64,000 bases of DNA from an uncultured Candidatus Saccharibacteria bacterium (GTDB lineage: Bacteria > Patescibacteriota > Minisyncoccia > Phycocordibacterales > Zambryskibacteraceae), in contig CAYUOR010000001.1 of assembly GCA_964446535.1 (NCBI GenBank), positions 7,283 to 71,282 of the forward strand. Direction: 5' to 3'. This document shows, piece after piece, positions 11,855-40,664 of this stretch (its first letter is position 1; the number at the start of each line of letters is the position of its first letter). The position numbers and the translations under genes were made by a program. Below the pieces are notes generated by a model, which ran no database searches, was not told the DNA's origin, and was given only the letters and a program-made list of their open reading frames with translations.

Positions 11855-14800
11855 CTATTGCTGGTTCAATTTTATTAAACCGTTCAAAAATTTCATAAAA
11901 TCAAAGATTCGTAAATTTCGTGTGGCGCTTGAATTCCCAGTAGCGAAACTTTTAATACTGCCAAAACCGGTGCCCGAACTATTGGTAGCATAGGCGCGAT
12001 AGTAATAAGTTTGGTCAGAAGAAAGTCCAGTTATAAAACTTGAAAAAGCATGATTGCCGTCAAGAGTACCTAGAGTTGTCGTAGAAACCCCTGTTGAAAG
12101 CGCCGAGTCTGTTGAATACGCAAAACCGTGCTGGGTAGCGTTATTGCCTCCGGTTTTCGTGCCGTGAATAGAAGCTGCGTTAAATCCGGGAACAGCAAAA
12201 TTTGTCGTAACCGTTGGCGCATTTACATCTGTGACGCTTTGCCATGTTGCCACAATGCCTGACGAACGATTTGGTGCCGCGCTCCAAGTAATTTGATACG
12301 TCTTCCCGGTTTGGGCGGAGGACTCTTTACCGGCGGCGGTCACGCCATCGGCTGAAGCTGGATCAGCACTCGTTTGTTCTGTTAAGGGTGAGGTGTAACT
12401 GTTAACGGTTAGCGCACCTTGGCCGTTCGAAGCGCCCATCACAACTAAACCGCCAGCAGCAACATTTATTGCACCGGGGGTGGTCGTCTGGGTCGGAGTT
12501 ATTGAAGTTTCATCAACATCAAAATCGGTTGGACCGGTCTGGCCAACACCAGTAAACACTTGGGCGTGAACTGCCCAATTTGCCGCAGTGGTACCGCCCG
12601 TGATTGCTACGGTCACAGAGCCGTTAGATGCGCCCAAATCATCCTCGTCGCAGTACCAAAGCTCTGTTCTATTGTCCGCAGAAACATCGTCATTAAAAGC
12701 GGTGTCTACGAAATGACAATTTTTTCCATCAACCGTTACTCCCGTCAAAGCCGTTGTGGCTTCTGCTTCCGACATGGCAAATACTGTAACTAGTCGATTA
12801 TTTCCAGCCGAACCAATGTTTAGAGTCGTAGAAAAAGAACCTCCGGTAGCACTTGCCGCACCAATCTGAATCCCTCCCTCAGTCCAAGAAACCCCCCAGT
12901 CATTAAGAAGTGGTGAGCCGTTTGAATCGGCAAGCGTCGCCTCAAGGCAAATCCTGTTGTGGAGCTGACCAGCGCCGGTTGAAGTAAGTGAAGAGAGGTC
13001 AATAGGGCTCGTTGCTGTCGGAGCAATGACTTGAGTATCACAATCCGATGAATTTGAGCCAAGGACTCTAACAGAAACCGTGCCGATGGTTTCCGTCTCA
13101 CTCCAAAAGGCTTGATTCCAGCCGCTTGCACCGTCATAAACATCAAAATCTATCACCGGAGAAAGAATTGTTCCGGTCGTAACATTTTCCGGGCGGACAG
13201 CAAACTGGAACCCGGTAAACCCGTCACTAACAACAGAGGAAACTGTAGCGTTACCGGTCGCGCCGGTTGAAGGACTGACTCTCGTTCCCCAGGAACCCGA
13301 GGCACCGTTTGCGTCGGACTGGGTTGAACCGGTGGAATTGATGCCGTCAGATTTTACCCAGCCGGCGCCAGAAATTCCAAACGGATTTCCGTCGCTACCG
13401 TCAAAAGAATGAAGATAGAAAGCCAGGGTGTGTGCAACGGTCGTATTAACGCTGGTGATGGCGCAGGATGTACCCACCGCATTACATGAGTCGGCGCCAG
13501 TTACATCAATAGGCGTTGTCGTATCAACGCCCGTTACCCGAAGGTAGTGCCCAAAAATATCTTCGGAGGTAACTGAAGTCGTGGTTGTGGATGTTTGCTC
13601 TGTCCCGTCAGCAATTCTGTAAAAGGCAGCCGAGTGCGAGTCGGAAGTTGTGTTGCCGGATTCATTTATAAATGTAAAGCCCGCGGGCCGATTGGTGCCG
13701 GAATCCCACTGGACGGTGCTATTGCCGGCATCATTGCCAACAATGATTAAAAGTAGATCTCCAACATTTACGCCGACAGGTTTTACAAGTGTTATTGATG
13801 TTCCTGGGTTTTCTGTCGCGCCAGCAGTAAACCCGGCAACATAAGGTAGGCGCGTTAAATCAATACTATTTGGCGTGGTGGTTGAAACCCGAGTGTTTGT
13901 GGTGGTACCGGTTAAAAATTGGTCACCCGTAGTCTGAAACCAGTCCGCACTCCCAGAACTTTTATAGGTGTAGCTGATAGTGTCACTCAACATTCTTGAG
14001 CCAGACCAAGTTCCCCAGTGGCTTCCGCTGTTAGCCGAAGCTCTGGCGCGAATGTAGTAAGTTGCGCCGTCTGTTGTCGGAAGACCCAAAGAACCTGTTG
14101 TTTGGAGGTTATATTGAGTACCAGAAGAATAAGTGTTTGAAAATGTTTCCGTATATGAAGTGCCCAAAAAATCAGCTTGGGTGTTGAATTCAACCTGGAA
14201 CCTGTCAAAGTTTCCGGTGTGCGTAGCAGAAACTCTGACAATTGGTGTGGTGTCATTCTGTCGGCTGTGACTAAAAGCAATCTGATTTGCCCCACCATCA
14301 TCTTGATAAATTGTGGGCGCGCTTGGTGCGGCAATTTCTCTTGCGCGAATAAAAACACCAGGGCCCCGGTAGTTCGTCGGGGTGGCGCCGGCGCAAGTAG
14401 AAGACCACTGTGGTGCCGCCGAGCCTGTTCCAGAGTTTACTGGCGCATGCCAAAGTACACCGCCAATGTCGTTACCGGTTACTGAATCCGCTTCACCCGC
14501 TTCCGTTACTGTTCCAAAGGTAACTCCTGTTTGGGTCAAGGTGTGGGAGGAATATTGAGCAGTTGTTTGAATGTCGGTCGGAATAACTTCGGCGCCGATA
14601 ATATAATCACCCGCGGTAACACCGGGATTCGCGCCAAAAGTAATTGAACAAGTACCGTCTCCAGATGTGTCTTCGCCTGTCGTGGTGGCAATGTCCCAAC
14701 TACCCAGGGTGTTTGAAAGACGGAAGATGTTTGCCCAAGTGACATTGTCGTTTGTCAGCGGAATGGCAAGACGTTTGTCTCTTTCTGAACCATCAGCAAC

Positions 14801-15190
14801 TTTCGCAAAAGCAAAAATATGCATATTTCCCGTATCAGTAGCTAGTGTCGTCCCATAACCACCCCCGGTGGTTGAGGCAATTCTTGTCCAGCCCGCTGGG
14901 TCCGTGGTGGCGCCTCTATTTTCAAGAGATGGCCTCATACCAAGTATTAAAATGAATAAATGCCCAGGCTCAATTAAGGATGCCGTAGAATAAACTGGAC
15001 TGCTTTCACCTTGGGCCACACCCGTAGTATCAAGTGAGCTCCCCGAGACATAGGTAATGGTGGCGTTTGTTGTTTTTGGTAAGAAAACCAGAGCCACCAG
15101 AAAAGTTGCGATCAACCAAAACTTGGTTAATGGTTCTTTTTTTAGTCTATTTGAATTTCTGGGTTCGTTCGCACATATACCAGCCATCAC
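11855..15190 (-). CDS. Giant surface protein (1111 aa), Thr/Ser/Gly-rich beta-rich repeats with a C-terminal fibronectin-III-like domain
   Basis: N-terminal signal anchor (FWLIATFLVALVFLP). Extreme T/S/G composition. C-terminal YYYRAYATNSSGTGFGSIKSF resembles an FN3 domain. Confidence 0.65.
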   Translation of the reverse strand: MMAGICANEPRNSNRLKKEPLTKFWLIATFLVALVFLPKTTNATITYVSGSSLDTTGVAQGESSPVYSTASLIEPGHLFILILGMRPSLENRGATTDPAGWTRIASTTGGGYGTTLATDTGNMHIFAFAKVADGSERDKRLAIPLTNDNVTWANIFRLSNTLGSWDIATTTGEDTSGDGTCSITFGANPGVTAGDYIIGAEVIPTDIQTTAQYSSHTLTQTGVTFGTVTEAGEADSVTGNDIGGVLWHAPVNSGTGSAAPQWSSTCAGATPTNYRGPGVFIRAREIAAPSAPTIYQDDGGANQIAFSHSRQNDTTPIVRVSATHTGNFDRFQVEFNTQADFLGTSYTETFSNTYSSGTQYNLQTTGSLGLPTTDGATYYIRARASANSGSHWGTWSGSRMLSDTISYTYKSSGSADWFQTTGDQFLTGTTTNTRVSTTTPNSIDLTRLPYVAGFTAGATENPGTSITLVKPVGVNVGDLLLIIVGNDAGNSTVQWDSGTNRPAGFTFINESGNTTSDSHSAAFYRIADGTEQTSTTTTSVTSEDIFGHYLRVTGVDTTTPIDVTGADSCNAVGTSCAITSVNTTVAHTLAFYLHSFDGSDGNPFGISGAGWVKSDGINSTGSTQSDANGASGSWGTRVSPSTGATGNATVSSVVSDGFTGFQFAVRPENVTTGTILSPVIDFDVYDGASGWNQAFWSETETIGTVSVRVLGSNSSDCDTQVIAPTATSPIDLSSLTSTGAGQLHNRICLEATLADSNGSPLLNDWGVSWTEGGIQIGAASATGGSFSTTLNIGSAGNNRLVTVFAMSEAEATTALTGVTVDGKNCHFVDTAFNDDVSADNRTELWYCDEDDLGASNGSVTVAITGGTTAANWAVHAQVFTGVGQTGPTDFDVDETSITPTQTTTPGAINVAAGGLVVMGASNGQGALTVNSYTSPLTEQTSADPASADGVTAAGKESSAQTGKTYQITWSAAPNRSSGIVATWQSVTDVNAPTVTTNFAVPGFNAASIHGTKTGGNNATQHGFAYSTDSALSTGVSTTTLGTLDGNHAFSSFITGLSSDQTYYYRAYATNSSGTGFGSIKSFATGNSSATRNLRIFDFMKFLNGLIKLNQQ

Positions 15191-25365: not shown

Positions 25366-26415
25366 CTAACTCTGCCCGATAGAGTCCGCCAGTGCAAGTT
25401 CAAGCGCAAGCTCGGGAATGGAGGTGCGCCCCGAGTCTTCGTAGGCAGTGATGAAGCGAAGAAGTGTCTCGGCGGTTAAATCCTTCCCCGCCTTCTCGGC
25501 GAGCGTTTTCAGGAACTTAAAGTCGTCTTCACTCGTCTCTTCTTCCACATATTCGTCCATACCCGCCTTCAAGCGAATTAAGAAAAGAAGGCGCATGCGT
25601 TCCAAAATAAGTTTGGCAAAGAGTTTCATGTCGACATTCGCCTCTCCCGCTCTTTGCACCGCCTTTAATCCTTTCTCCAAGTTTTTCTCCACGACTGCCG
25701 AGAGGACATCGCGTACCAGTTCCGCCCTAGGCGCTCCAGTCAGTTTCTCCACCTCCTCTCGAGTAATCTTTTTGTCTTTTGTTGAGGATAAAATTTTCTC
25801 TAATATTCCATGCACGTCGCGAAAAGAGCCGTCGCCGAGAAGAGCAACAAGCTCGGCCGCCTCTTTTTCCAGGCTAAAACCCTCTTTTTTACTGACTGCG
25901 AGAGCAAAATCTTTGAGCGTTGCCTGATTTGGCTGTTTAAATCTGAAGGTCTGGCACCTGGAGATAACCGTATCGGGCACCTTTTCAAGCTCCGTTGTGG
26001 CGAAGACAAAGACAACATGCTTGGGCGGTTCTTCCAGAGTTTTAAGAAACGCGTTCCAGGCCTCCTTTGTGAGCATGTGTGTCTCATCTATGATGTAGAC
26101 CTTGTATTTGGATTCAAATGGTAGAGTGCTCACCGACTCGCGGATTTCTCGGACATCGTCTATGCCTCGATTCGAAGCGGCATCCATCTCGACTAGGTCA
26201 GGACCCGAGGTGCCGATTTCCTTCGCCAGAATTCTTGCGACAGAAGTTTTTCCTGTACCTCTAGGGCCGGAGAAGAGATAGGCATGCGCGACATTTCCGA
26301 GCTTTAGAGCACCTTCAAGAACTTTAACAATATGATCCTGCCCGATAACATCATCGAAGTTTTGCGGTCTATACCTTCTATAGAGCACAGCGGAGGATTC
26401 TTCCGATTTTTTCAT
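25366..26415 (-). CDS. dnaX: DNA polymerase III subunit gamma (short DnaX, no tau C-terminal domains)
   Basis: AAA+ clamp-loader motifs (GPRGTGKTS; DETHML; SRC). 349 aa. A TATACT hexamer lies 7 nt upstream of the ATG (the track GTG start would sit 1 nt from the hexamer). Confidence 0.85.
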   Translation of the reverse strand: MKKSEESSAVLYRRYRPQNFDDVIGQDHIVKVLEGALKLGNVAHAYLFSGPRGTGKTSVARILAKEIGTSGPDLVEMDAASNRGIDDVREIRESVSTLPFESKYKVYIIDETHMLTKEAWNAFLKTLEEPPKHVVFVFATTELEKVPDTVISRCQTFRFKQPNQATLKDFALAVSKKEGFSLEKEAAELVALLGDGSFRDVHGILEKILSSTKDKKITREEVEKLTGAPRAELVRDVLSAVVEKNLEKGLKAVQRAGEANVDMKLFAKLILERMRLLFLIRLKAGMDEYVEEETSEDDFKFLKTLAEKAGKDLTAETLLRFITAYEDSGRTSIPELALELALADSIGQS

Positions 26416-26422
26416 AGACACA

Positions 26423-26430: not shown

Positions 26431-27387
26431 TTATTTTAGAAGATACTCGCCAACAATCGTCTCCACTTCGCCGGCACTCGCCGTCTCCATTAACCGAGCG
26501 CGAAGCTCTACCGCGCCGCCAAAGCCCGAGACATACGCCTTAAAATGTTTTTTCATAATGGCAAAGCTTTTGGTATCGCCCAAAAATTGTTCAAAAAGTT
26601 TCGTGTGCTCTACGAGTACCCTCAGTTTTTCCTCAGTCGTTGGCAGGTGGCCGGAAAAAAGCCAAGGATTGCCGAAAATAGCTCTTCCGAGCATAACACC
26701 GTCGCAGCCTGTTTCTTCGACCCTTCTTCTCGCCTCTTCCAAGTTTTCTACATCACCGTTTCCAAATATAAGTGTCTTCGCTCCCGCCTCATTTCTTATT
26801 TCTACGGCTCTTTTGACAAATTCCCAACGCGCAGAAACCTTTGACATCTCTTTCCTCGTTCGCGCATGGATTGTCACGACCGCGGGATCCTCTTTAAGCA
26901 CCTCCGAAAGCCAAGTATCGAGTTCCGGCTTGTTGTAGCCGGTACGGGTTTTTAAAGAAACCGGCAGACCTGCCGCGCCCTCTTTAGCGGCGCGAATAAG
27001 AGCTCTTGCGACTTTGGCATTTTTCATAAGCTGTGCACCGGCCCCTTGTTTTTCTATCGTTCTATCGGGACAGCCCATGTTTATGTCAACACCGTCGAAA
27101 CCGAGTTTGACTGCAAGCTCTGCCGCAGTCTTCATGTGCTCCGGAGAGGAAGTAAAGAATTGCGCTACAATCGGATGCTCGGCTTCTGAATACTCCAAAT
27201 CTTTTAAAAGCTTCTTTCTCCCACCCTCTGGCGCAAGCGCCAGACCGTCAGCCGAGACGAATTCGGTCCAGAAAACGTCTGGTTTGCCGTACTTGGCAAT
27301 AACCGCACGGAAAGCAGGGTCCGTGACATTCGCCATAGGTGCCAGTACAAAGACTGGTTTCTTTAGTTTTTCCCAGAAATTACTCAA
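26431..27387 (-). CDS. dus: tRNA-dihydrouridine synthase
   Basis: TIM-barrel Dus motifs (VLAPMANVTD; catalytic GCPD..region). Confidence 0.85.
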   Translation of the reverse strand: MSNFWEKLKKPVFVLAPMANVTDPAFRAVIAKYGKPDVFWTEFVSADGLALAPEGGRKKLLKDLEYSEAEHPIVAQFFTSSPEHMKTAAELAVKLGFDGVDINMGCPDRTIEKQGAGAQLMKNAKVARALIRAAKEGAAGLPVSLKTRTGYNKPELDTWLSEVLKEDPAVVTIHARTRKEMSKVSARWEFVKRAVEIRNEAGAKTLIFGNGDVENLEEARRRVEETGCDGVMLGRAIFGNPWLFSGHLPTTEEKLRVLVEHTKLFEQFLGDTKSFAIMKKHFKAYVSGFGGAVELRARLMETASAGEVETIVGEYLLK

Positions 27388-29770
27388 AATCCTTATCGCT
27401 TAATTCCACCGTTGAGCCGCTAGAGAGCTCGCCGGAAATCATTTTCTTGGCGATAATCTGCTCCACCGTTTCCTGAATAGCGCGATTAAGCGGGCGGGCG
27501 CCAAACTTTGGATCGGTTCCTTTCCTGACAAGGAAATTTATTAGAGCCTCGTTAGTCTTCAAAGTAATACCTTTTTCCTTAAGGCGTGTTTCAAGACTCT
27601 TTAACATTTTTTTAGAAACTTCTTTTAGATGTGCCTTACTGAGCGGATGGAAAAGGATAACACCGTCAAAACGGTTTAAAAGCTCCGGTTTAAACATGCC
27701 ACTAGAAATAATTTCGTTCATAATCGTATCTTTGGCACCCGAGAGATCTTTGTGTGTCTTCAAGTATTCGAAAATTATGTCGCTACCGGCGTTTGAGGTG
27801 GCAACTATCACGACATTTCTGACACTTACCTTCTCAGAGCGCATATCGGAAAAGATTCCTTCGTCTATAATCTGAAGGAAGAGATCAAGAACCTTCGGCG
27901 CCGTTTTTTCAAATTCGTCTAAGAGAAGGACGCCATACGGATTCTCGCGCAGAAGGGAGACAAGTGTCCCAGGAGTATTTGATTCAAAGGAACCAATGAG
28001 ACGGTTCAGAGAATCCGCCGAGTTGTATTCCGACATATCAAGGCGTAGAAATTTTGCTTTGTCGCCGAAGAATACTTCACCAAGAGCCTTCGCCGTCTCG
28101 GTCTTGCCCACGCCCGTAGGACCCAAGAAAAGAAATGAACCCATAGGTCGCATGGGGTTTGCGATGCCGGAACGAGCGCGGCGGATAGCATCGGCAACCG
28201 CCTTGACAGCTTCTTCCTGTCCGACAATTTTTGATTTTAGCAGTGCTTCTAGATTCAAGAGCTTGTCCTTCTCTGCCTCACTTACCTTTCCCGTTGGAAT
28301 ACCGGTTTTTGACCTTACGGCAGAGAGAACATCCTCTTTATATAGGGTAAATTTTTTTGCCTTACTCGCCGAAGCCGCAGCTTCGACCAGAAGATCAGAA
28401 GCAGCATCCGCTAGCGGACGATCAACGAAGTACTTCTTGGCAGACATAATGGCTTCGGCAACGGCTGGATAAGTTATGAGAGCGCCAAGCTCTTTTTCCA
28501 AGCGCAGTACTTCAGTTTTTAGAATCCCGACCAAGTGATTCTCGTCTATAGGATGAACCGCCACCTTCTCAAATTGTTGTTTTATGTCGCCGATATTTTC
28601 AAGATTTTTTTCGTATTCGTCACTATTAGAAACACCCACTATCTGGAGCTTTGAGGAAGATACAAATGGGCTCAAAACGGAGATCACGGAAATACCATAG
28701 CGATTGCCCGCTTCCAGAAATTTAGAAAAGTTCGGTATAACGAAAATGACATTGCCGGCACGCTCCGATTCTCTTAAAACCTTCAACAGTTCACGCTCAA
28801 AGACTTCTGCATTGTCCGTTGAGGCAGCTAAAAGCGATGGTTCAAAAACCCATATTTCTTTGTCCTCAAGCGCCCTTGCCGCCTCACCCTTCTCCATCAT
28901 TCGATGCAGTTCTTCGAGGACCTCCATCTTGCCCGAACCGTCTTCTCCGACAAGAATGGCGTTCGCCCCCGAAGAGCGAGAGAGAATAATTTCAAGAAGC
29001 TTTGCTTCTTCGGCGTGCAATCCGTCGCTTGAAACGGTGGTTGAAACGCGCAGAGGTCTTGAGTATTTTGCAAGAGAATAAGACTTGCCGTACGACCAAC
29101 TACGGCCCACCGGGTGTACTTTAAGAAGGTTTTCTCTCGACCACCAGCGTCTTAGTTTTGCTTCCTCAAATAATACAGAGGCACTCCAGCTTCCGGCGCC
29201 AAGGAAATCTTCTTCGGTTATGTTGTGGGAGAGAATAAATTTTCTGAATTCGGTATCCGCAGCGAGAAGCGCCGAAAGATAAGCTCTAAAAACGGCACGC
29301 TTATCGGTAAGTATAATTTTGTCTGTGGAGACCTTTGTTTTTCTTTCCTTGAGAAATTTATTTATTTCCGCAGAACTTATGCCAGACCGTGAGAGAATTT
29401 CCCTACCAAGAATTGAGTTCACGAAGCCCTTCGTCACATCCTGCTCTCTTGTGTTGAAAACAATCAGGGCGAGTTCCAGGCCGAATCGGCCCGCCTGTCT
29501 CGAGCGTTTGAAATAATGTGAATAGTGGAAACAGTCCAAAAGGAAAAGAAATAGCCAGAGTGAGATTGAAAGATAAAGCATCCCTTCCGTTCGACTACTT
29601 GAGCCGACAAGAGAATCGCTAGACTGCAGTAGGGTTACAAAAAATGAGGCAACAACGAGGAAGGATAGTACGCTCTTCAAAACACTTCGTAACTTAGAAG
29701 GAAAGGCGCTCTCCAGGGCAAAGACGGGTTTCCAGGGCGAAAGTATTCTTTTTAACTCTTGAAAATTCAT
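27380..29770 (-). CDS. Membrane-anchored Clp/Hsp100-family AAA+ ATPase with degenerate first ATPase domain
   Basis: Two N-terminal TM helices. D1 Walker A is degenerate (VGEDGSGKM). D2 is intact (GPTGVGKT; LLLDEFEKT; ATSN sensor; GARPL arginine finger; ClpB D2-small-like C-terminus). Confidence 0.75.
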   Translation of the reverse strand: MNFQELKRILSPWKPVFALESAFPSKLRSVLKSVLSFLVVASFFVTLLQSSDSLVGSSSRTEGMLYLSISLWLFLFLLDCFHYSHYFKRSRQAGRFGLELALIVFNTREQDVTKGFVNSILGREILSRSGISSAEINKFLKERKTKVSTDKIILTDKRAVFRAYLSALLAADTEFRKFILSHNITEEDFLGAGSWSASVLFEEAKLRRWWSRENLLKVHPVGRSWSYGKSYSLAKYSRPLRVSTTVSSDGLHAEEAKLLEIILSRSSGANAILVGEDGSGKMEVLEELHRMMEKGEAARALEDKEIWVFEPSLLAASTDNAEVFERELLKVLRESERAGNVIFVIPNFSKFLEAGNRYGISVISVLSPFVSSSKLQIVGVSNSDEYEKNLENIGDIKQQFEKVAVHPIDENHLVGILKTEVLRLEKELGALITYPAVAEAIMSAKKYFVDRPLADAASDLLVEAAASASKAKKFTLYKEDVLSAVRSKTGIPTGKVSEAEKDKLLNLEALLKSKIVGQEEAVKAVADAIRRARSGIANPMRPMGSFLFLGPTGVGKTETAKALGEVFFGDKAKFLRLDMSEYNSADSLNRLIGSFESNTPGTLVSLLRENPYGVLLLDEFEKTAPKVLDLFLQIIDEGIFSDMRSEKVSVRNVVIVATSNAGSDIIFEYLKTHKDLSGAKDTIMNEIISSGMFKPELLNRFDGVILFHPLSKAHLKEVSKKMLKSLETRLKEKGITLKTNEALINFLVRKGTDPKFGARPLNRAIQETVEQIIAKKMISGELSSGSTVELSDKDFE

Positions 29771-30153
29771 ACGAGAAGTGAAATGCCTTGGATAAAAAGA
29801 GAGACGATAATAAGAGGTGCCAGTGTCCAGAGAATAAACGCCGAAAGACCAAGAAGAAAGACTACTACTAAAGCCAGAAGGCCAGAGATAATAACAAAGG
29901 TGCGCATGACAAAACCCACCAAGCGCATCATTGTATTTACTACCAAAGTTTCAAGAAACGCCTCGAGATCAAAACTCTTTTTATAATCTTCGTTTAAACG
30001 GCCCAAGGGCGAGAACCAAGTCTTGAAAAGAAGTTTCAAGGAAAAAATATGCAAGATGAAGATAAGAGAGTTCTGCCAATTGCGATAAAGGTCGGCGAAT
30101 GCTTCGGAATAGTGCCATCTTATATAGAGAAACGGAAGGTAGATTGTCTGCAT
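29767..30153 (-). CDS. Hypothetical polytopic membrane protein co-transcribed with the Clp-like ATPase
   Basis: 128 aa. Overlaps the downstream gene by 4 nt. Confidence 0.5.
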   Translation of the reverse strand: MQTIYLPFLYIRWHYSEAFADLYRNWQNSLIFILHIFSLKLLFKTWFSPLGRLNEDYKKSFDLEAFLETLVVNTMMRLVGFVMRTFVIISGLLALVVVFLLGLSAFILWTLAPLIIVSLFIQGISLLV

Positions 30154-30168
30154 TTGCTTTAAATTGTA

Positions 30169-31002
30169 TCACCTCCTAAAGCGGTAAAAAACTTTGTCCT
30201 CTACTCTTAAGTCTAAATACCGAATTTTATCCAAAAAATCTTTTTGTGACCTTATTGATTCTTCCGAAAGAAAGGCGGAAAGGTTGGTGTAGATATTCTC
30301 TAAACTAAATTCTTTTCGCCATAATATTCGCACACCCTTATCTGTTAGAAGCGTATAGCCGTCATCAGCTATCTCAAGCGCTTTGGCACGAATATCGAGA
30401 TCCACCAAGCGATCTATAAAATCGGAAAGAGCCCTAAATTCTTCAGGCAATACTAGACTCTCGCCTATCGGCTCGGTAATAAAATTTTCGGTGCCAAAAA
30501 TAAAATAAGATGGACCGGAAAAAGCCGGAGCACGGGCAAAAATCAGAGCCTCGCTGTCAAGAAAAAAGCAGTTTGTACCATCTGATTCAAGTGCGTTAGG
30601 GCAGTAAAGTGCTCTGGGCAGTCTTTCTTCCACCGAAATAACAAGAGATTCAGCTTCTACATCAAGCTCAACATCTTTTAATCTTTTAAAATTTTCGGTC
30701 AGGATCGATTTGATTTCGGAGCGTGGATATACCAAAATATTGGCTCTTGGAATAAGCCAAAAATAATATCCGTCGAGAAGTGTCGTAACTTTTTCTACCA
30801 TGTCACTGCGATCGACAATATCTTTCCCTGTTACCACTACCTCGGATATAAGAAAGTCCGGTTGGCGAGAGAGGTAGCCCAGGCTCCAGACAGAGGTGAC
30901 AAGCAGAGCCAGAAAAAGGGAAAACTTTAATAATTTTTTTCTTTTCTTCTTTTTATAGAGTTTAGAGGAATTAAGAACCTTGCCCGATGAGACGATTTTC
31001 AT
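30169..31002 (-). CDS. ftsQ: FtsQ/DivIB-like cell division protein (POTRA domain)
   Basis: Lys-rich N-terminus, single TM helix, then a POTRA-like region (ISEVVVTGKDIVDRSDM...ANILVYPRSEIKSIL...LVISVEERLPRALY). Confidence 0.6.
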   Translation of the reverse strand: MKIVSSGKVLNSSKLYKKKKRKKLLKFSLFLALLVTSVWSLGYLSRQPDFLISEVVVTGKDIVDRSDMVEKVTTLLDGYYFWLIPRANILVYPRSEIKSILTENFKRLKDVELDVEAESLVISVEERLPRALYCPNALESDGTNCFFLDSEALIFARAPAFSGPSYFIFGTENFITEPIGESLVLPEEFRALSDFIDRLVDLDIRAKALEIADDGYTLLTDKGVRILWRKEFSLENIYTNLSAFLSEESIRSQKDFLDKIRYLDLRVEDKVFYRFRR

Positions 31003-31005
31003 TTC

Positions 31006-32271
31006 TCATTTCTTTATTATCGAGAGCCCATTCATGTACGGCCTAAGTGCTTCCGGAATCCTGACTGAGCCGTCGGCTTCTTGAAAATTTTCCACAAGGG
31101 AGACCAGGATCCTCGGCGTTGGAATAGCCGTCGCGTTTAAGGAGTGAACATACTTAATTTTGCCGTCCGCATCTCGGTAGCGTGTGTTGAAGCGCCTGGT
31201 CTGGAAGTCATGATAATAAGAGGCGCTCGCAATCTCACGGTACTTGCCTTCTTTTGGCACCCAAAGCTCGGTGTCATAACTTTTCACGTGGGCACCCTTA
31301 AGGTCCCCTGTGGAAATGACAACCTGCTGATACGGAATGCCAAGTGATTCAATGAATTCCTCTGTGTTTCTGTTGAGCTCTTCGTGATACTTCACCGACT
31401 CTTCGTGGCTTGCCTCGCAGAGAATAAGCTGCTCAAGTTTGAAAAACTCGTGAACGCGGATAAGACCTTTAACATCTTTCGAATAACTTCCAGCCTCCCT
31501 TCGGAAACATGGTGAAAAGGCAAGATAACGTAGGGGCAGATCTTTTTTTTCTAAAATTTCTTCGGCATGATACGCCATCATCGGTATTTCAGCGGTACCG
31601 GCAAGATACTGATCATCCTGAGTTTGGAAAATATCTTCGGCGCCACCGGGGAGGTGTCCGGTACCGTAGAGAAAATTTTTATGGACAATTACCGGCGGGA
31701 TAAATAGGTTGAAACCCTTGCTGAGAAAAAAGTCGCGTGAGTAATTCCAAATGGCCCAGGAGAGCATGGCACCAGAATTCTTCAGAAAATAACCACGGAA
31801 ACCATGCACCTTGGCACCACGCTCAAGGTCTATCATGTTAAGAGCCGTCATGAGCTCAATGTGATCCTTTGGCTCAAAATTAAATTCCGGTTTTTTACCC
31901 CAGGTCTTAAGAACCTTGTTGTCCGCCTCGGTTTTCCCTTCTGGCACGGTGGCATCCGGAATATTCGGCACCTCGAGCATAAGGGCGCGCCATTCTTTGA
32001 GAACTGTTTCAAGCTCTTTCTCTTCCTTCTCAAGAGAAGTTTTGAGTGTTTTCATTTTTTCAAGAATTTTTTCACGCTCCTTGGAATCTGCTTTAACTAT
32101 GGCGTTATTGGCAACTTTCTGTTCGGCACGTTTTTCCTCTGTTGTTAAAAGTAGCGACCTTCTTTTATCATCAATTTCAATCAGCCGATCTAGATCAAAT
32201 TTAATACCCTTAAGCTGGGCGGCTCTCTCGATGAGTTTTGTATTCTCCCTGATAAACTTTATGTCGAGCAT
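31006..32271 (-). CDS. serS: Seryl-tRNA synthetase
   Basis: N-terminal coiled-coil arm plus a class II core (motif 2/3 region FRRE...G..R; GSALA-type). 421 aa. Confidence 0.9.
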   Translation of the reverse strand: MLDIKFIRENTKLIERAAQLKGIKFDLDRLIEIDDKRRSLLLTTEEKRAEQKVANNAIVKADSKEREKILEKMKTLKTSLEKEEKELETVLKEWRALMLEVPNIPDATVPEGKTEADNKVLKTWGKKPEFNFEPKDHIELMTALNMIDLERGAKVHGFRGYFLKNSGAMLSWAIWNYSRDFFLSKGFNLFIPPVIVHKNFLYGTGHLPGGAEDIFQTQDDQYLAGTAEIPMMAYHAEEILEKKDLPLRYLAFSPCFRREAGSYSKDVKGLIRVHEFFKLEQLILCEASHEESVKYHEELNRNTEEFIESLGIPYQQVVISTGDLKGAHVKSYDTELWVPKEGKYREIASASYYHDFQTRRFNTRYRDADGKIKYVHSLNATAIPTPRILVSLVENFQEADGSVRIPEALRPYMNGLSIIKK

Positions 32272-33183: not shown

Positions 33184-35361
33184 TTGAGTCTAATGAAACT
33201 TTTGATAGTGGAGTCGCCGTCAAAGGCGAAGACTATAGAAAAATATCTTGGGAAAGAATTCCGTGTCGTGGCATCTGTCGGCCACATACGCGATTTGCCC
33301 AAGTCGAATAAGAAAGCGATAGATATCGCTAAAGGATTTGTGCCGCACTATGAGGTCGTTAAAGGAAAGGAGAAAGTAATTTCAGAAATTAAAACACTCG
33401 TTAAGAAGGCGGATGAGGTTCTCCTTGCCACAGACCCAGACCGCGAGGGTGAGGCCATAGCTTGGCACGTCAAGGAGGCGGTAGGGTTAAAAAAACCTAA
33501 ACGCATCGTCTTTTATGAGATTACTAAAGAGGCGGTTGAAGAGGCGCTGGAGCGCCCTAGGAGCATAGATGATCAGTTGCGCGAGGCACAAGAAGCAAGG
33601 CGAGTTCTCGACCGCCTTGTGGGTTACGATCTCTCGGGACTTATCTGGAAAAAAGTGCGCTATGGTCTTTCTGCCGGCAGAGTACAATCTCCCGCCCTCC
33701 GTATCATCATGGAGCGGGAGCGCGAGATTCGTGCTTTTGAGCCCATTACATTCTGGCGAGTCATGGCGGAACTTGAAGATAAGTCGGGCAACAAACTTCT
33801 CTTTCTCTGTTCTAAAGAACCGACCGATAAAAATGAAGTTGAACAAATTCTTGAAAATGCCAAGAAAAACAATTGGCAAGTAACAGACGTTAAAGAAACC
33901 GAGGTCTCGCGCGCCGCCCGAGCACCATTTATCACCTCTACTCTTCAGCAAACCGCAAGCTCACGTCTGGGCTTCGCGCCTTCTTACACTATGAGCCTGG
34001 CGCAAAAACTTTATGAAGCGGGTCATATTTCCTATATGCGCACCGATTCGACAAATCTCGGAAGCGCAGCACGAAAAGATATTGAAAATGTGGTGGGAAA
34101 AAAATTTGGAGACGATTATTTTCAATCGAATGTCTTTGCAAAAAAATCTAAAAACGCGCAAGAAGCCCATGAAGCTATAAGGCCGACGCATGTCTCTGTG
34201 GAAACGGCTGGACACTCGGACGCGGAGAAGAAACTCTACCGCCTTATCTGGCAGAGAACTATTTCAAGTCAAATGAAGCCAGCGAAAGTAATGCGCACAA
34301 GAGTTCTGGCTAACGTTTCCGGCTCAGACCTGCCAGACTTTGCTCTAAACGGATCACGGGTGCTCTTCGACGGCTGGCTTAAGGCTGACCCCGATTCGGC
34401 AAGCGAAGATGTCGTCCTGCCAAAACTCGCTCTTGGAGATTCGCTCAAATTTATTAAAATCTCCTCCGAAGAAAAGCAGACGGAGCCCCCAGCGCGCTAC
34501 TCGGAGGCGGGGCTTATCAAGGAGTTGGAGAAACGAGGAATAGGACGACCTTCGACATATGCCTCTATTATAAAAACCCTGGAGGATCGTGGGTATATAG
34601 CCAAAATTTCTAAGGCGCTCCATCCAACAGACACTGGCGACGTGGTCAGTTCATTTCTCGAGGAACATTTCCCTACCTACATCAGCGACTCTTTCACCGC
34701 TGAAATGGAAAATGAACTGGACGAAATAGCCGAAGGAAAGCGTTCTTATAAAAAAACTTTGGCAGATTTTTACAAACCTTTTGAGCTTGCGGTAAAGTCG
34801 AAAGAGGAAATAGAAAAAATAACCAACCTGGGCAAGGCTCATTCCGACTTCAGGTGTCCGCTCTGCGGCGGCGATATGATTATAAAACTTGGCAGAAACG
34901 GCAAATTTTTATCGTGTGAAAAGTTCCCCGAGTGTTCCGGTGCCCGTACTATTGAGGGCAAGGAGCTTGCGGGACCTAAGGATACGGGAGAACTTTGTCC
35001 GAAATGTGGCAAGGGTAATCTTGTGGCCAGAGAGGGTAGATTTGGTATGTTTATCGCCTGTTCTCAGTTCCCAAAGTGTAAGTTTGTCAAAAAGGATGAA
35101 GAACAAGAAAAAGCAAATTCTACGGGAGTGGTGTGCCCAGAATGTAAAAAAGGCTTCCTTACGGAAAGGCGCGGAAGGTTTGGTGTATTCTATAGTTGTT
35201 CGAGTTATCCTGACTGCAAGTTTGCTATAAAGGCGCGACCGACCGGAGAAGTTTGCGACCTCTGCGGTTCCCTCATGATGGAGGGTACAAAAACTATCCC
35301 CGAGAGATGTTCTAACAAACAATGCCAAAACCACAATCCACACAAAAAAGAGAAGAAATAG
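33184..35361 (+). CDS. topA: DNA topoisomerase I
   Basis: TOPRIM N-terminus (LLIVESPSKAKTI...GHIRDL), catalytic Tyr region, and four C-terminal Cys4 zinc ribbons. Confidence 0.9.
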   Translation: MSLMKLLIVESPSKAKTIEKYLGKEFRVVASVGHIRDLPKSNKKAIDIAKGFVPHYEVVKGKEKVISEIKTLVKKADEVLLATDPDREGEAIAWHVKEAVGLKKPKRIVFYEITKEAVEEALERPRSIDDQLREAQEARRVLDRLVGYDLSGLIWKKVRYGLSAGRVQSPALRIIMEREREIRAFEPITFWRVMAELEDKSGNKLLFLCSKEPTDKNEVEQILENAKKNNWQVTDVKETEVSRAARAPFITSTLQQTASSRLGFAPSYTMSLAQKLYEAGHISYMRTDSTNLGSAARKDIENVVGKKFGDDYFQSNVFAKKSKNAQEAHEAIRPTHVSVETAGHSDAEKKLYRLIWQRTISSQMKPAKVMRTRVLANVSGSDLPDFALNGSRVLFDGWLKADPDSASEDVVLPKLALGDSLKFIKISSEEKQTEPPARYSEAGLIKELEKRGIGRPSTYASIIKTLEDRGYIAKISKALHPTDTGDVVSSFLEEHFPTYISDSFTAEMENELDEIAEGKRSYKKTLADFYKPFELAVKSKEEIEKITNLGKAHSDFRCPLCGGDMIIKLGRNGKFLSCEKFPECSGARTIEGKELAGPKDTGELCPKCGKGNLVAREGRFGMFIACSQFPKCKFVKKDEEQEKANSTGVVCPECKKGFLTERRGRFGVFYSCSSYPDCKFAIKARPTGEVCDLCGSLMMEGTKTIPERCSNKQCQNHNPHKKEKK

Positions 35362-35387
35362 ATTTCCTCGCTGAAATCACGAGGAGT

Positions 35388-36857
35388 ATGGCCGACCCAT
35401 CTCCGAGAGATGTAGAGCTTGTCAGAAAGGCGCTTCGCTTTGTCGAAGAGGTAAATGCTGGCAAAGAAAGGTTTTCCGGAGAACCAAACATTGTGCACCT
35501 GGCAGAAACCGCATTAATTCTCGCGGAGCTGGGCGGGAGCGCCGTAACCGTTGCGGCAGGACTTTTGCACGACATTTTAGAGGATTCGGGTATTAAAAGA
35601 GAGGTTGTCTCAAAAGAGTTCGGGGATGAGATTGTTTTTCTTATAGAGGGAACTGCGAAACTCGGGGCACTTAAATATAAAGGTGCCGATAGACACAACG
35701 AGAGTCTCCGAAAACTTTTTGTCGCTATATCAGAAGACATTCGGGTTTTACTCGTAAAACTTGCCTGCCGACTTCATAACATGAGAACGCTTGTCCACGT
35801 GCCGAAAGAGAAGCAAGAGCGACTGGCTCACGAGACCCTTGAGATATACGCGCCTATCGCCTATCGCCTTGGTATCAGGAAAATCAATCGAGAATTGGAA
35901 GATCTATCGTTCCCGTATGTTTACCCTAAGGAGTTTGAGGCGATGAAAAAAATTCTGAAAGAGAGGCATCTGGACAGAAGTGAGGCTCTGGAAAAATTTT
36001 CACGCTCGGTCAAAAAAGCACTTGCCAAAGAAGGTCTTACCAGCATAAAAACGGAATATCGAGTCAAGGGACTTTATAGTCTCTATAAAAAATATTTGCG
36101 CTATGACAAAGACCTTGAAAAAATCTACGACCTTAACGCCATGCGTATTCTTGTTGATTCCGTAGGTGATTGCTACAGAGTATTGGGGACAATTCACGCG
36201 CGCTGGAAACCTCTGCCGGGTCGCATTAAGGACTATATCTCGAATCCGAAACTTAATGGTTACCAGGCACTTCACACCACCGTCTTCACGGGAGACGGCA
36301 ATATTGTTGAGATGCAGATTAAAACTCATGATATGCATAAGTATTCCGAGTATGGAGTTGCCTCACACCTTTCTTATAAAAGCGGTAGCCAGAACAAGGA
36401 TGTGCTCGCCTGGGTGCACGCGTTACTGCCGGAACAAGGCGGCATAAACATCGCTAGTAGAAACGATATTCCTCACTGGATTAGAGAACTTGCCCACTAC
36501 GAAGAGCCGTCAAAGAACTATAAAATTTTCAGAGAGGGGCTTAAAAGTGATTTTTTCAGCCATAGGATTTTCGTCTTTTCCCCTAAGGGCGATGTCGTGG
36601 ATCTACCGATAGATTCTACCCCGATAGATTTCGCCTACTATATCCATTCCGATATTGGAAATAAAATGTCCGGTGCCAAAATAAATGGTAAGCTTGTCTC
36701 TCTTGAAACAAAGTTACGAAACGGCGATATCGTTCATATCGAAACTAGAGAAAGCGCAAAGCCGAATCGAAAGTGGCTCGACATGGCAAAAACTTCTCTA
36801 GCTCGACGCCACATCAGACACAAACTTAGCGAACTCACTAAAGACTCAAAAAACTAA
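35388..36857 (+). CDS. Minimal bifunctional (p)ppGpp synthetase/hydrolase (RelA/SpoT homolog, no ACT domain)
   Basis: HD domain (LLHDILED), synthetase domain (RILV...GYQALHTTV), and a TGS domain. Start chosen at the first ATG after the topA stop; the track ORF begins at 35322 inside topA. Confidence 0.8.
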   Translation: MADPSPRDVELVRKALRFVEEVNAGKERFSGEPNIVHLAETALILAELGGSAVTVAAGLLHDILEDSGIKREVVSKEFGDEIVFLIEGTAKLGALKYKGADRHNESLRKLFVAISEDIRVLLVKLACRLHNMRTLVHVPKEKQERLAHETLEIYAPIAYRLGIRKINRELEDLSFPYVYPKEFEAMKKILKERHLDRSEALEKFSRSVKKALAKEGLTSIKTEYRVKGLYSLYKKYLRYDKDLEKIYDLNAMRILVDSVGDCYRVLGTIHARWKPLPGRIKDYISNPKLNGYQALHTTVFTGDGNIVEMQIKTHDMHKYSEYGVASHLSYKSGSQNKDVLAWVHALLPEQGGINIASRNDIPHWIRELAHYEEPSKNYKIFREGLKSDFFSHRIFVFSPKGDVVDLPIDSTPIDFAYYIHSDIGNKMSGAKINGKLVSLETKLRNGDIVHIETRESAKPNRKWLDMAKTSLARRHIRHKLSELTKDSKN

Positions 36858-37952: not shown

Positions 37953-40664
37953 ATGGAGAAACTCTTAGAAACCAAGTGGCACGCCCTTGAGACGGATGAA
38001 GTGTTTAAAATTCTCAAGTCGAATTCTCTCGGTATAAGTGAAAAGGAGGCCCAGGAGAGGAAAAAAATCTATGGCGAAAACAAATTGCCCGAAGCCAAGG
38101 TCGATAGCGTCCTTACCATATTCCTGCGCCAGTTTGAAAGTCCGTTAATTTACATTTTACTGGCGGCAGCGGTAACGGTTATCGCCATGGGTGACTATAC
38201 CGATGGCATTATGATTGGGATTGTCCTTCTTCTAAATGCGGTCGTCGGCGCCATTCAGGAAGGTCGGGCCCGTAACACCCTGCATGCCCTTGAGAGATTT
38301 GTTGAAACTAAGGCCGTGGTTATCCGTGACGGCGTAGAGATAATTATTCCGGACACACAGCTTGTCCCGGGAGATATTATCGTTCTTCAGGAAGGTGAAA
38401 AAGTTGCTGCAGACGCGCGTGTTACGAGTGAGAGAAGTCTAAAGGTAAATGAGTCCGCTCTAACGGGCGAATCCGAGTCGGTATTTAAACAAAGAGGGGT
38501 GATCAAGGGTGACACTATCGGAATCCAGGAACAAAAAAATATGCTCTTCAGGGGCACGGGGGTGGTTTCCGGACACGGTACAGCTCTGGTGGTGAGAACC
38601 GGTATTGATACTGAAATCGGCAAAATCGCGAAAGAAATTTCAGCCATAGATACGGAAATTCCTTTAAAAACCGACATACGTCGCCTTTCAAGAATTATTA
38701 TCGCGGCAGCGCTCGGCATTAGCACTTTGCTCTTCATCTTTGGTATTTCAACTGGCAGAGAAGTCGCCGACATGTTCGCGACTGTTGTCTCGGTTATGGT
38801 CTCTGTTATACCCGAAGGTCTACCTATAGCTATCACGGTAATTTTAGCGGCTGGCGTTTGGAGAATGAGTAAACGCAATGCCCTGATAAAACGTCTGCAG
38901 GCGGTTGAAGCTCTTGGTCAGGCGGACGTTATCGCGGTTGATAAAACAGGCACCATAACCAAAAACGAGATGACGGCTCAGGTGGTTTTCGTTGGCGGGA
39001 AAATATTTGAAATCGGAGGACTTGGCTACGAGCCAAAAGGCAAGATAACACAAGAAGGGATTGAAGTATCTGCGACAGAGCATCCCGAGCTCGTCCTTCT
39101 CGGCAAATTATCCGCACTTTGTAATAGTGCACGAATATTTCGTAACAACGAGACTAACACTTGGAAAGTTTCCGGCGATCCGACAGAAGCGGCCATTGCG
39201 GTTTTTGCCGAGAAACTGGGATTTAACAAGGATGCTCTAGAAACCGAGTCTCCTCTAATCTCAGAGATGCCATTCGATTATCACTTGAAATACCGAGCCA
39301 GCTTGCACAATGATAAAAATGAAAAGATTCTTGCGGTAATTGGCGCACCAGAAGTGTTAATAGAGCTCTCGGACAGAATTTACGAAAATAATGAAGCAAA
39401 GAAATTCGATGAGAAAGAAAGAGTGTCTAACATTGTGCGCGATCTTTCTAAAAAAGGATTGCGGGTTCTGGCTGTTGCTAAAAGCTCTCTAAACACCGAC
39501 GACCTTGATGAAGCTAAGGTAAAGAATTTAGTATTTATCGGTCTTATTGGTATTAGAGACACTCTTAGACCTGAGGCAAAGGGGGCGGCGGAACTAGCCC
39601 AGAGGGCGGGTGTCAGAGTCGTTATGATAACGGGTGATCATAAGATTACTGCCGAGGCCATAGCGGAAGAGGCCGCAATATATAAAAGCGGAGACAGGGT
39701 TCTGACGGGGGTTGAAATTGACGGCATGTCGGATAAAACATTGAAAGAAACACTGAAAAATGTTTCTGTTTTTGCGCGTGTTACCCCCGAGCATAAGATG
39801 AGAATTATTAACGCTTTCAAATCGGATGGAAAAATTATTGCCATGACCGGAGACGGCGTAAATGATGCTCCTTCTCTTGTCACCGCCGACCTTGGGGTTG
39901 CTATGGGCAAGGTTGGTACGGAGGTGGCGAAAGAGGCGTCTGATATTGTGCTTCTTGATGACAACTTTTCAAGCATTATTTCAGCGGTAGAAGAAGGTCG
40001 CAATATCTATAAAACCATAAAGAAAGTGGTTTTATATCTACTCTCCACCAGTATTGGGGAAATCCTTGTTATCACCTCGGCAATTGTGGCTGGGCTTCCT
40101 CTACCGCTTCTTCCGACGCAAATCATCTGGCTAAACTTCGTCACAGACGGATTCTTCACCGTGGCACTCGCCATGGAGCCGAGAGAAAAAAATCTCTTAA
40201 CAAAACTCAAGCGTCCTGGAAAATATATAGTGGACGCCTTGATGGCGAAAAGAATGATCTTCATGGCGCTACCTATGACCGTGGTTGGACTCTTTATTTT
40301 CCAGAGCTATCTGGAATCCGATCTGGCCAAGGCCTGGACGATGTCGCTTACGGTGCTGGCCGTCTTTCAGTGGTTTAATGCATGGAATTGTCGGTCGGAG
40401 ACAAAATCAGTCTTTACCACTAATCCTTTTGAAAATATCTGGATGGTGGGAGCAACACTACTCGCTTTCGGATTCCAGCTCTTGGCGGTTTATAATCCCC
40501 TTTTCCAAAAGTTTCTGCATACTGTTCCCTTAAGCTTGAATGAATGGCTTATTGTAATTCTTTCGGCTTCTACAGTCATCTTCTCTGAAGAAATCAGAAA
40601 ACTTTTTACAGAGAAACGCTCTACCAATACAGACTCTCAGAAACTACAAACAGCAACGAGCTAA
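37953..40664 (+). CDS. P-type cation-transporting ATPase (type IIA, Ca2+-ATPase-like)
   Basis: DKTGTIT phosphorylation site, TGDGVNDAP hinge, TGES actuator motif, 10 TM helices; 903 aa. Confidence 0.9.
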   Translation: MEKLLETKWHALETDEVFKILKSNSLGISEKEAQERKKIYGENKLPEAKVDSVLTIFLRQFESPLIYILLAAAVTVIAMGDYTDGIMIGIVLLLNAVVGAIQEGRARNTLHALERFVETKAVVIRDGVEIIIPDTQLVPGDIIVLQEGEKVAADARVTSERSLKVNESALTGESESVFKQRGVIKGDTIGIQEQKNMLFRGTGVVSGHGTALVVRTGIDTEIGKIAKEISAIDTEIPLKTDIRRLSRIIIAAALGISTLLFIFGISTGREVADMFATVVSVMVSVIPEGLPIAITVILAAGVWRMSKRNALIKRLQAVEALGQADVIAVDKTGTITKNEMTAQVVFVGGKIFEIGGLGYEPKGKITQEGIEVSATEHPELVLLGKLSALCNSARIFRNNETNTWKVSGDPTEAAIAVFAEKLGFNKDALETESPLISEMPFDYHLKYRASLHNDKNEKILAVIGAPEVLIELSDRIYENNEAKKFDEKERVSNIVRDLSKKGLRVLAVAKSSLNTDDLDEAKVKNLVFIGLIGIRDTLRPEAKGAAELAQRAGVRVVMITGDHKITAEAIAEEAAIYKSGDRVLTGVEIDGMSDKTLKETLKNVSVFARVTPEHKMRIINAFKSDGKIIAMTGDGVNDAPSLVTADLGVAMGKVGTEVAKEASDIVLLDDNFSSIISAVEEGRNIYKTIKKVVLYLLSTSIGEILVITSAIVAGLPLPLLPTQIIWLNFVTDGFFTVALAMEPREKNLLTKLKRPGKYIVDALMAKRMIFMALPMTVVGLFIFQSYLESDLAKAWTMSLTVLAVFQWFNAWNCRSETKSVFTTNPFENIWMVGATLLAFGFQLLAVYNPLFQKFLHTVPLSLNEWLIVILSASTVIFSEEIRKLFTEKRSTNTDSQKLQTATS

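Follow-up and report, generated by a model that had tools for sequence, protein, structure and literature searches.

The 64,000-nucleotide (nt) stretch of DNA analysed here (the window) belongs to contig CAYUOR010000001.1 of an uncultured Candidatus Saccharibacteria bacterium of the Zambryskibacteraceae (GCA_964446535.1) and carries on its minus strand six genes which, according to the list of open reading frames (ORFs) of the window, are tightly packed with intergenic gaps of −8 to +15 nt. In the order of their reading these are serS, encoding seryl-tRNA synthetase (SerRS), a gene for a 277-amino-acid (aa) homologue of FtsQ/DivIB, a gene for a 128-aa membrane protein (hereafter p128), a gene for a 796-aa ATPase of the Clp/Hsp100 type carrying a predicted membrane anchor (hereafter the Clp-like ATPase), dus and dnaX (Table 1), with dprA and topA lying upstream of the cluster in divergent orientation. 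The stop codon of p128 and the start codon of the Clp-like gene share an ATGA, giving an overlap of 4 nt, and the Clp-like gene in turn overlaps dus by 8 nt. The reading frames and the 4-nt overlap were found as given in an earlier, preliminary description of the window. A scan for consensus promoters and terminators yielded no enrichment over shuffled sequences and was uninformative on operon boundaries.

The p128 and Clp-like genes formed a pair that was kept in nearly all loci compared. Using phmmer and hmmsearch on six-frame ORFs, a p128 homologue was found directly upstream of the ATPase gene and on the same strand in 84 of the 85 loci fetched, in most cases at −11 to +12 nt relative to the Clp-like start, and after removal of duplicate contigs the synteny check showed the pairing in 80 of 81 non-redundant loci, the sole miss being due to a contig edge. 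The reciprocal search gave the same picture, as three p128 homologues on contigs of 246–550 kb were each followed, 3–5 nt on, by a gene for an 823–825-aa protein with AAA_2 and ClpB_D2-small domains, and the pairing held at these loci even though their upstream neighbour was a divergent CAP-domain gene. Furthermore, in-frame p128::Clp-like fusions occurred in two unrelated metagenome-assembled genomes (L081:7593-9899, 768 aa, and L085:110-2551, 813 aa), where the p128 domain makes up residues 1–120 and stands in for the hairpin and first N-repeat of the ATPase, an arrangement that implies a cytoplasmic C-terminus for p128. No further p128 fusions were present among 150 family representatives. 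The L085 fusion carries an additional hydrophobic segment after its p128 domain. Taken together, gene order and fusions support a functional coupling of p128 and the Clp-like ATPase.

p128 itself has two C-terminal transmembrane helices (residues 75–128, 29770..29931), conserved N-terminal motifs (Y..WHY, FS...L..T.F.PW.R and VN..MR.vG) and an invariant arginine, R77, just before the first of these helices. Neither the single sequence nor sets of its homologues matched any Pfam, NCBIfam, PADLOC or PDB entry, and database records name it ‘hypothetical protein’.

The extent of the Clp-like family was explored with its N-terminal half. A word-indexed search returned just 24 full-length relatives, and an alignment scan of species-representative genomes returned 351, the nearest of them in Candidatus Zambryskibacteria at 55% identity. 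Locus titles were assessed for the best 80 of these 351 relatives; all named ones were Patescibacteria/Parcubacteria, several being titled merely ‘bacterium’, and the lineages comprised Zambryski-, Lloyd-, Taylor-, Vogel-, Nomura-, Campbell-, Ryan-, Giovannoni-, Portnoy- and Tagabacteria, Paceibacterota and Minisyncoccia. This range supports a Patescibacteria origin of the window. An exhaustive profile search through 1.84 billion cluster representatives detected 1,137 clusters (50% identity) at E ≤ 1e-30, the top 150 of which cover essentially the entire N-terminal half. Among the 80 best loci, a p128 and Clp-like pair of the Patescibacteria type lies on a 9.4 kb contig titled ‘Patiriisocius sp.’, a flavobacterium (L029, JBLHQB010000028.1), which is probably mis-binned. 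Neither protein family has a dedicated Pfam or NCBIfam model or a solved structure, and no description of a membrane-anchored Clp/Hsp100 protein in Patescibacteria was found in the literature searched. Motif statistics given below refer to 76–88 diverse family members.

The best PDB sequence matches of the Clp-like ATPase were ClpC, ClpB and ClpA (~1e-99). Its AlphaFold2 (AF2) model, built on an alignment of 88 sequences, reached a mean predicted local distance difference test score (pLDDT) of 88.9 and a predicted template-modelling score of 0.82, and showed, in this order, a helical hairpin, seven short helices (residues 97–207), the first AAA+ module (D1), the D1-small domain, the second AAA+ module (D2) and the lid. 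Foldseek likewise returned ClpC, ClpB, ClpC1 and ClpA subunits as the best PDB matches (E 1e-43 to 1e-37). All NCBIfam Clp equivalogs, on the other hand, scored far under their cutoffs, with 405.5 against 1232.1 bits for ClpB (TIGR03346) and 343.9 against 993 bits for ClpA (TIGR02639), the latter aligning in a single stretch over residues 262–790. The protein is distinct from the ClpB also encoded in the window (48455..51130, minus strand), to which BLASTP showed 40% identity in D2 and 29% in D1. That gene had been called a canonical ClpB, in keeping with its end-to-end alignment to TIGR03346 at 1206.9 bits, just below the cutoff of 1232.1; its longest ORF has a TTG start at 51166.

Two hydrophobic peaks were evident in the Kyte–Doolittle profile of the Clp-like ATPase (residues 29–52 and 63–82), coinciding with AF2 helices at residues 25–50 and 58–86 (pLDDT > 90), thereby bearing out the two N-terminal transmembrane helices proposed before. 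The tail preceding the hairpin is net positive and the loop between the helices neutral, which fits a hairpin with both ends on the inside (N-in/C-in). Position 79 in the second helix is acidic, E or D being present in 73 of 88 family members, and is followed by the aromatic motif [FY][YF]xS[YF]Y[FY]. This residue (D79 in the window protein, 29534..29536) and R77 of p128 (29923..29925) are candidate partners for a salt bridge, which would be intramembrane or interfacial. The extracytoplasmic loop joining the two helices measures just ~10 residues in the window protein and carries an insertion of ~60–80 aa in Lloydbacteria-type members (L027, L052, L070; P0112).

The preliminary description had held that the N-domain typical of Clp proteins was replaced by this hairpin. 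Instead, a domain of seven helices (~97–207) lies between the hairpin and D1. When family residues 88–250 were compared with canonical Clp N-termini by hhalign, both Clp_N repeats aligned in register (P = 9.4e-5, probability 59%), as against P = 0.11 for the reversed control and P ≥ 0.15 in all column-shuffled controls shown. A separate AF2 model of residues 88–214 (pLDDT 91.9) retrieved ClpC1-NTD, PfHSP101-N, Hsp104-N and ClpB-N as the top seven PDB matches in Foldseek, although each was non-significant (E 0.7–1.6, TM-score 0.40–0.45). Pfam Clp_N was detected in one of 40 family members, at 0.002, and a profile-to-PDB sequence search yielded no Clp_N but chance matches such as an apicoplast polymerase (E ~0.08). 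We regard it as probable that the helical domain is a strongly diverged derivative of Clp_N, ahead of which the transmembrane hairpin was added. The linker that follows is rich in tryptophan and is the most conserved family-specific segment, with the family form RWWSRENL...G[RK]xWSYGxxYxLxKY and the residues W210, L215, G222, W225, S226, G228, L233 and Y236 invariant in A1/A4; it is also the region of lowest pLDDT in the AF2 model.

D1 is recognizable by homology, as phmmer aligned residues 254–475 with residues 188–408 of ClpC (i-Evalue 7e-22) and the Foldseek alignments were full-length, while Pfam gave a sub-threshold AAA_lid_9 alone in this part. Compared with ClpB/ClpC, the Walker A sequence GEPGVGKT has become GEDGSGKM, the Walker B IDE has become IPN, the pore loop KYRGEFE reads DNAEVFE and the Arg-finger site ERRFQ reads KQQFE. 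The Walker A lysine is kept in 42 of 88 members and followed by [ST] in four of the 88, the Walker B glutamate is likewise kept in four of 88, and the pore-loop tyrosine is lost family-wide, the loop being variable and without a conserved aromatic residue. The unusual P-loop had already been taken as a sign of a non-catalytic module, and the losses in Walker B, pore loop and Arg fingers now extend that assessment; judged by its motifs, D1 is catalytically dead.

In D2 the catalytic residues are retained. Walker A, Walker B, sensor-1 (TSN), the Arg finger and sensor-2 were all invariant or nearly so among the members compared and, as the catalytic positions of D1 drift freely at the same time, selection acts on D2 catalysis only. 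The statement that D2 is fully intact holds for these motifs and fails for the pore-1 loop, where GAPPGYVG[F/Y]EEG of ClpB/ClpC is replaced by GSFESNTPG, which is 4 residues shorter. GYVG was found in none of 76 members, all of which have the short form. Position 595, at the start of this loop, is F in 51 and Y in four of 88 members, and otherwise a gap or non-aromatic. The alignments thus indicate that neither D1 catalysis nor a canonical gripping loop is maintained by selection, and canonical substrate threading by this ATPase is doubtful. An [ILV]G[FL] tripeptide for ClpP docking was not found after the D2 sensor-1, where the stretch falls 6 residues short of that in the ClpB of the window, in agreement with the earlier failure to discern a docking loop. 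Finally, the D1 match (254–475) is contiguous with the D2 match (478–794), and the corresponding ClpC stretches (188–408 and 473–798) leave the M-domain region of ClpC unaligned, indicating that the Clp-like ATPase has no M-domain; nor is a long coiled coil seen in the AF2 model.

Table 1. Genes and protein features of the six-gene cluster, with window positions, strand and basis of assignment.
Feature	Residues	Window position	Strand	Basis
serS (SerRS)		31006..32271	-	ORF
277-aa FtsQ/DivIB homologue		30169..31002	-	ORF and family profile
p128, 128-aa partner membrane protein		29767..30153	-	ORF and Kyte–Doolittle
796-aa membrane-anchored Clp/Hsp100-like ATPase, whole gene		27380..29770	-	ORF, Pfam, PDB matches, AF2
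N-terminal transmembrane helical hairpin (predicted)	25-86	29513..29698	-	Kyte–Doolittle, AF2
Divergent Clp_N-like helical domain (probable)	97-207	29150..29482	-	hhalign, AF2
Trp-rich linker RWWSRENL...GRSWSYG.SYSL.KY	208-240	29051..29149	-	family alignment
D1 module (predicted pseudo-ATPase)	253-475	28346..29014	-	ClpB/ClpC alignments
D1 Walker A VGEDGSGKM	274-282	28925..28951	-	alignment
D1 pore loop ASTDNAEV		28802..28825	-	alignment
D1 Walker B remnant IFVIPN		28730..28747	-	alignment
D1 former Arg-finger site IKQQF		28571..28585	-	alignment
D2 active AAA+ module	541-702	27665..28150	-	Pfam AAA_2 (PF07724), 1.7e-37
D2 Walker A GPTGVGKT		28100..28123	-	alignment
D2 shortened pore-1 loop GSFESNTPG	593-601	27968..27994	-	alignment
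D2 Walker B VLLLDE		27914..27931	-	alignment
D2 Arg finger NRFD		27665..27676	-	alignment
ClpB_D2-small lid	710-789	27404..27643	-	Pfam PF10431, 3.5e-24
Sensor-2 GAR (GARP kept) in lid		27494..27502	-	motif conservation
dus		26431..27387	-	ORF
dnaX		25366..26421	-	ORF

The gene preceding the pair encodes a protein with one N-terminal transmembrane helix (residues 23–45, 30868..30936) followed by POTRA and FtsQ beta domains, a bitopic organization it shares with FtsQ/DivIB, from which it is otherwise highly divergent and differs in its position beside serS and the p128 and Clp-like genes. The window sequence alone had no Pfam or NCBIfam match; its family profile, however, matched FtsQ chains in the PDB (8hhf_Q at 1.1e-8 over residues 9–264; 8hhf_Q, 5z2w, 2vh1 and 6h9n at 1e-8 to 2e-7), and 17 and 7 of 31 homologues contained Pfam POTRA_1 and FtsQ_DivIB_C, respectively. 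On these profile matches it is an FtsQ homologue, as had been surmised from its POTRA-like features. Two extracytoplasmic cysteines, C134 and C145, are invariant in all 31 aligned homologues and may form a disulfide. An FtsQ-like gene was present within 8 kb of the pair in 44 and directly adjoining it in 38 of 70 informative non-redundant loci, and in locus L034 it has been relocated directly downstream of the ATPase gene, with a 4-nt overlap. In the loci inspected, neither ftsA nor ftsZ turned up within the 8-kb flanks. In a further locus (L032:1515-4982) the Clp-like ORF is 1155 aa long and includes a full Dus match, owing either to in-frame read-through or to an assembly or frameshift artefact.

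Elsewhere in the window, a protein of 1260 aa (4980..8762, minus strand) combines SpaA-like prealbumin-fold domains with DUF642 and a peptidoglycan-binding domain and probably represents a large protein of the surface or cell wall, and a 1111-aa ORF (11855..15190, minus strand) is without a Pfam match at E ≤ 1e-5. The remaining neighbours are of ordinary kinds. The plus strand encodes a RelA/SpoT homologue (35322..36857), a P-type cation ATPase (37953..40664) and an RNase R/II (RNB) protein (58120..60051), the last adjoined on the minus strand by an SMC/RecN-like ATPase (60052..62283).

On balance we consider it somewhat probable that p128 and the Clp-like ATPase constitute an obligate two-component, membrane-embedded AAA+ machine specific to Parcubacteria, which acts as a D2-powered remodeller and is possibly linked to the divisome. 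According to this proposal, the two-helix hairpin (N-in, C-in) would anchor the ATPase in the membrane and, below it in the cytoplasm, the Clp_N-like domain, the Trp-rich linker, the dead D1 ring and the ATP-hydrolysing D2 ring would follow one another, D1 serving probably as an assembly or scaffold tier only. Hydrolysis in D2 would then drive, rather than processive threading, a cycle of conformational change or remodelling that acts on a client close to the membrane, with p128 holding or presenting that client. For the client, a divisome or envelope component is the leading candidate because FtsQ adjacency is frequent. Lacking an M-domain, the ATPase is no DnaK-coupled disaggregase, and lacking a ClpP loop it is no protease partner; since neither ring possesses a conserved aromatic pore-1 residue, it probably does not thread processively. 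The comparisons establish the domain anatomy, the motif states across the family, the pairing and fusions of the genes, the homology to FtsQ and the taxonomic range, and from them we infer the oligomeric state, the client, the mode of action and a contact between the two proteins. In a bolder form the proposal would state that the pair is a lineage-wide Parcubacteria membrane AAA+ machine whose single active ring, lacking threading loops, remodels or extracts a complex in the membrane, the divisome with its FtsQ being the most plausible one; this we put forward tentatively and think rather unlikely to hold in full.

Several points weigh against the two-component remodeller. The phenylalanine F595, a position at which 55 of 88 members have F or Y, could be a non-canonical pore-loop aromatic, so that threading could still take place; a hexameric state is presumed from membership in the family; a physical contact between p128 and the ATPase is a supposition from gene pairing and the two fusions; and the Clp_N assignment is of moderate strength, given the hhalign probability of 59%, Foldseek E-values of ~1 and the lack of a profile-to-sequence match. 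The genomic context is ambiguous as well, since 26 of the 70 informative loci have no FtsQ-like gene within 8 kb, and the FtsQ-like gene shares its synteny in the same loci with unrelated housekeeping genes, those of SerRS, Dus and DnaX. As FtsQ adjacency travels with SerRS, Dus and DnaX, it may reflect inherited gene order, and from both observations the conserved core is the p128 and Clp-like pair alone.

The last point leads to the alternative that survives best, namely that the adjacency is nothing but inherited gene order and that the pair works in a process unconnected with cell division, for example the quality control of membrane proteins, the biogenesis of lipids or of the envelope, or the assembly of a pilus or secretion system. 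We give this close to an even chance. Apart from the co-synteny, it accounts for the loci without a nearby FtsQ-like gene, whose flanks hold unrelated genes on the opposite strand, the pair standing alone downstream of a divergent CAP-domain gene. It accounts less well for the persistence of the adjacency among members with 26–30% identity in their N-terminal halves, and for its survival in the L034 rearrangement. The FtsQ or divisome link of the pair is hence no more than suggestive, and the envelope or divisome association put forward in the preliminary description is moderately supported: the frequent adjacency speaks for it, and the SerRS/Dus co-synteny together with the loci without FtsQ-like neighbours speaks against it.

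A second alternative concerns the mode of action. The ATPase might be a membrane-tethered but otherwise canonical Hsp100 unfoldase and translocase, whose D2 motor threads and extracts membrane or membrane-proximal proteins by way of a central pore, as do FtsH, Msp1 and Pex1/Pex6. The fully conserved D2 catalytic machinery is what such an enzyme would need, the fold matches subunits of substrate-bound ClpC and ClpB hexamers with target-normalized TM-scores up to ~0.8, the D2 pore loop frequently opens with an aromatic residue, and in Pex1/Pex6 a dead D1 is combined with a threading D2 and a small membrane protein as recruiter (PMC5762779). The D2 pore-1 loop, however, is shortened in every member and without the aromatic-hydrophobic-glycine motif, its aromatic residue, which 33 of 88 members lack or have deleted, is not under strict selection, and the D1 tyrosine is missing across the family. 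To our knowledge, the pore aromatic is under strict selection in every threading AAA+ protein. We regard this alternative as unlikely, though as the main rival in mechanism, F595 then acting as a degenerate pore aromatic. Of the membrane-tethered unfoldase proposed earlier, the tethering and the Hsp100 descent stand, as opposed to a soluble chaperone, while canonical threading is not borne out, the pore-1 aromatics being not conserved and the D2 loop short.

Very little speaks for the ATPase being a decaying or non-enzymatic ClpB paralogue kept for scaffolding only, or a DolB- or PDC-M37B-type ATPase of anti-phage defence. D1 is indeed degenerate, and the PADLOC models DolB and PDC-M37B matched at 1e-35 to 1e-33. 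The D2 catalytic residues, however, are invariant in more than 80 diverse members of a large, vertically syntenic family, which excludes decay, and the pseudogene reading was rejected on this motif evidence. The PADLOC matches cover the generic AAA_2 core alone (470–664), for which reason the defence reading was rejected as well; moreover, p128 and the FtsQ-like protein match no defence model, and the locus is housekeeping and syntenic rather than an island. About as improbable, and rejected on motif evidence, is a membrane-bound ClpA/ClpC-type partner of ClpP equivalent in function to FtsH, for although the architecture without M-domain is ClpA-like, the NCBIfam ClpA model aligns over most of the AAA+ part and the best PDB matches come from the ClpC chains of ClpC–ClpP complexes, the docking tripeptide is missing in a region shorter than even that of ClpB, the ClpA score is 344 bits against a cutoff of 993 and none of the loci inspected showed a clpP gene beside the pair.

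Hsp100/Clp proteins count as soluble machines that work by threading. With ClpA, ClpC and ClpB the Clp-like family has in common the two tandem AAA+ modules of the same fold and order, the ClpB_D2-small lid, the D2 motifs, probably a Clp_N-derived N-domain and, as in ClpA, the absence of an M-domain. It differs from them in its membrane hairpin, its dead D1, its short D2 pore loop and missing pore tyrosines, its lack of a ClpP loop or M-domain and its apparently obligate small membrane partner.

Among more distant systems, Pex1/Pex6 with the tail-anchored Pex15 is a double-ring AAA+ complex with inactive D1 and active D2 that works at the membrane with a small membrane protein (PMC5762779, PMC9265785). 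It belongs, however, to the classic AAA+ clade and not to the HCLR/Clp clade, is eukaryotic, soluble and recruited, and threads its substrates by canonical D2 pore loops. The Torsins with their transmembrane cofactors LAP1 and LULL1 are Clp/Hsp100-related, membrane-associated, devoid of aromatic pore loops and in need of a membrane-protein cofactor (PMC5425593). They differ in having a single AAA+ module, in residing in the lumen of the endoplasmic reticulum and in lacking their own Arg finger, which is supplied by the cofactor, whereas the Clp-like family keeps NRFD as the Arg finger of its D2, along with a canonical Walker A of the GKT form; no Torsin chain was among the PDB sequence matches of the Clp-like ATPase at E ≤ 1e-5. 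In FtsH, Msp1 and Bcs1 an N-terminal transmembrane anchor likewise sets the AAA+ ring under the membrane, FtsH also having two transmembrane helices, but these are single AAA+ modules of the classic clade with aromatic pore loops, in FtsH with a protease domain, and none is of the Clp D1–D2 type. The Clp-like family is thus a new architectural and functional variant of Clp/Hsp100 with a new partner family, and not a new kind of machine.

An integral-membrane Clp derivative with a dead D1, no gripping tyrosine and a sometimes-fused subunit would extend the known uses of the Clp fold. As the genomes of Parcubacteria are minimal, the genes of this family are likely to be important to them, and the frequent FtsQ adjacency offers a concrete lead into division or envelope building in Patescibacteria. 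If the bolder form of the proposal is true, the pair would match in its logic, on the bacterial side, the Torsin–cofactor or Pex1/6–Pex15 systems, and these ultra-small bacteria would divide or assemble their envelope with the help of a distinct step driven by ATP.

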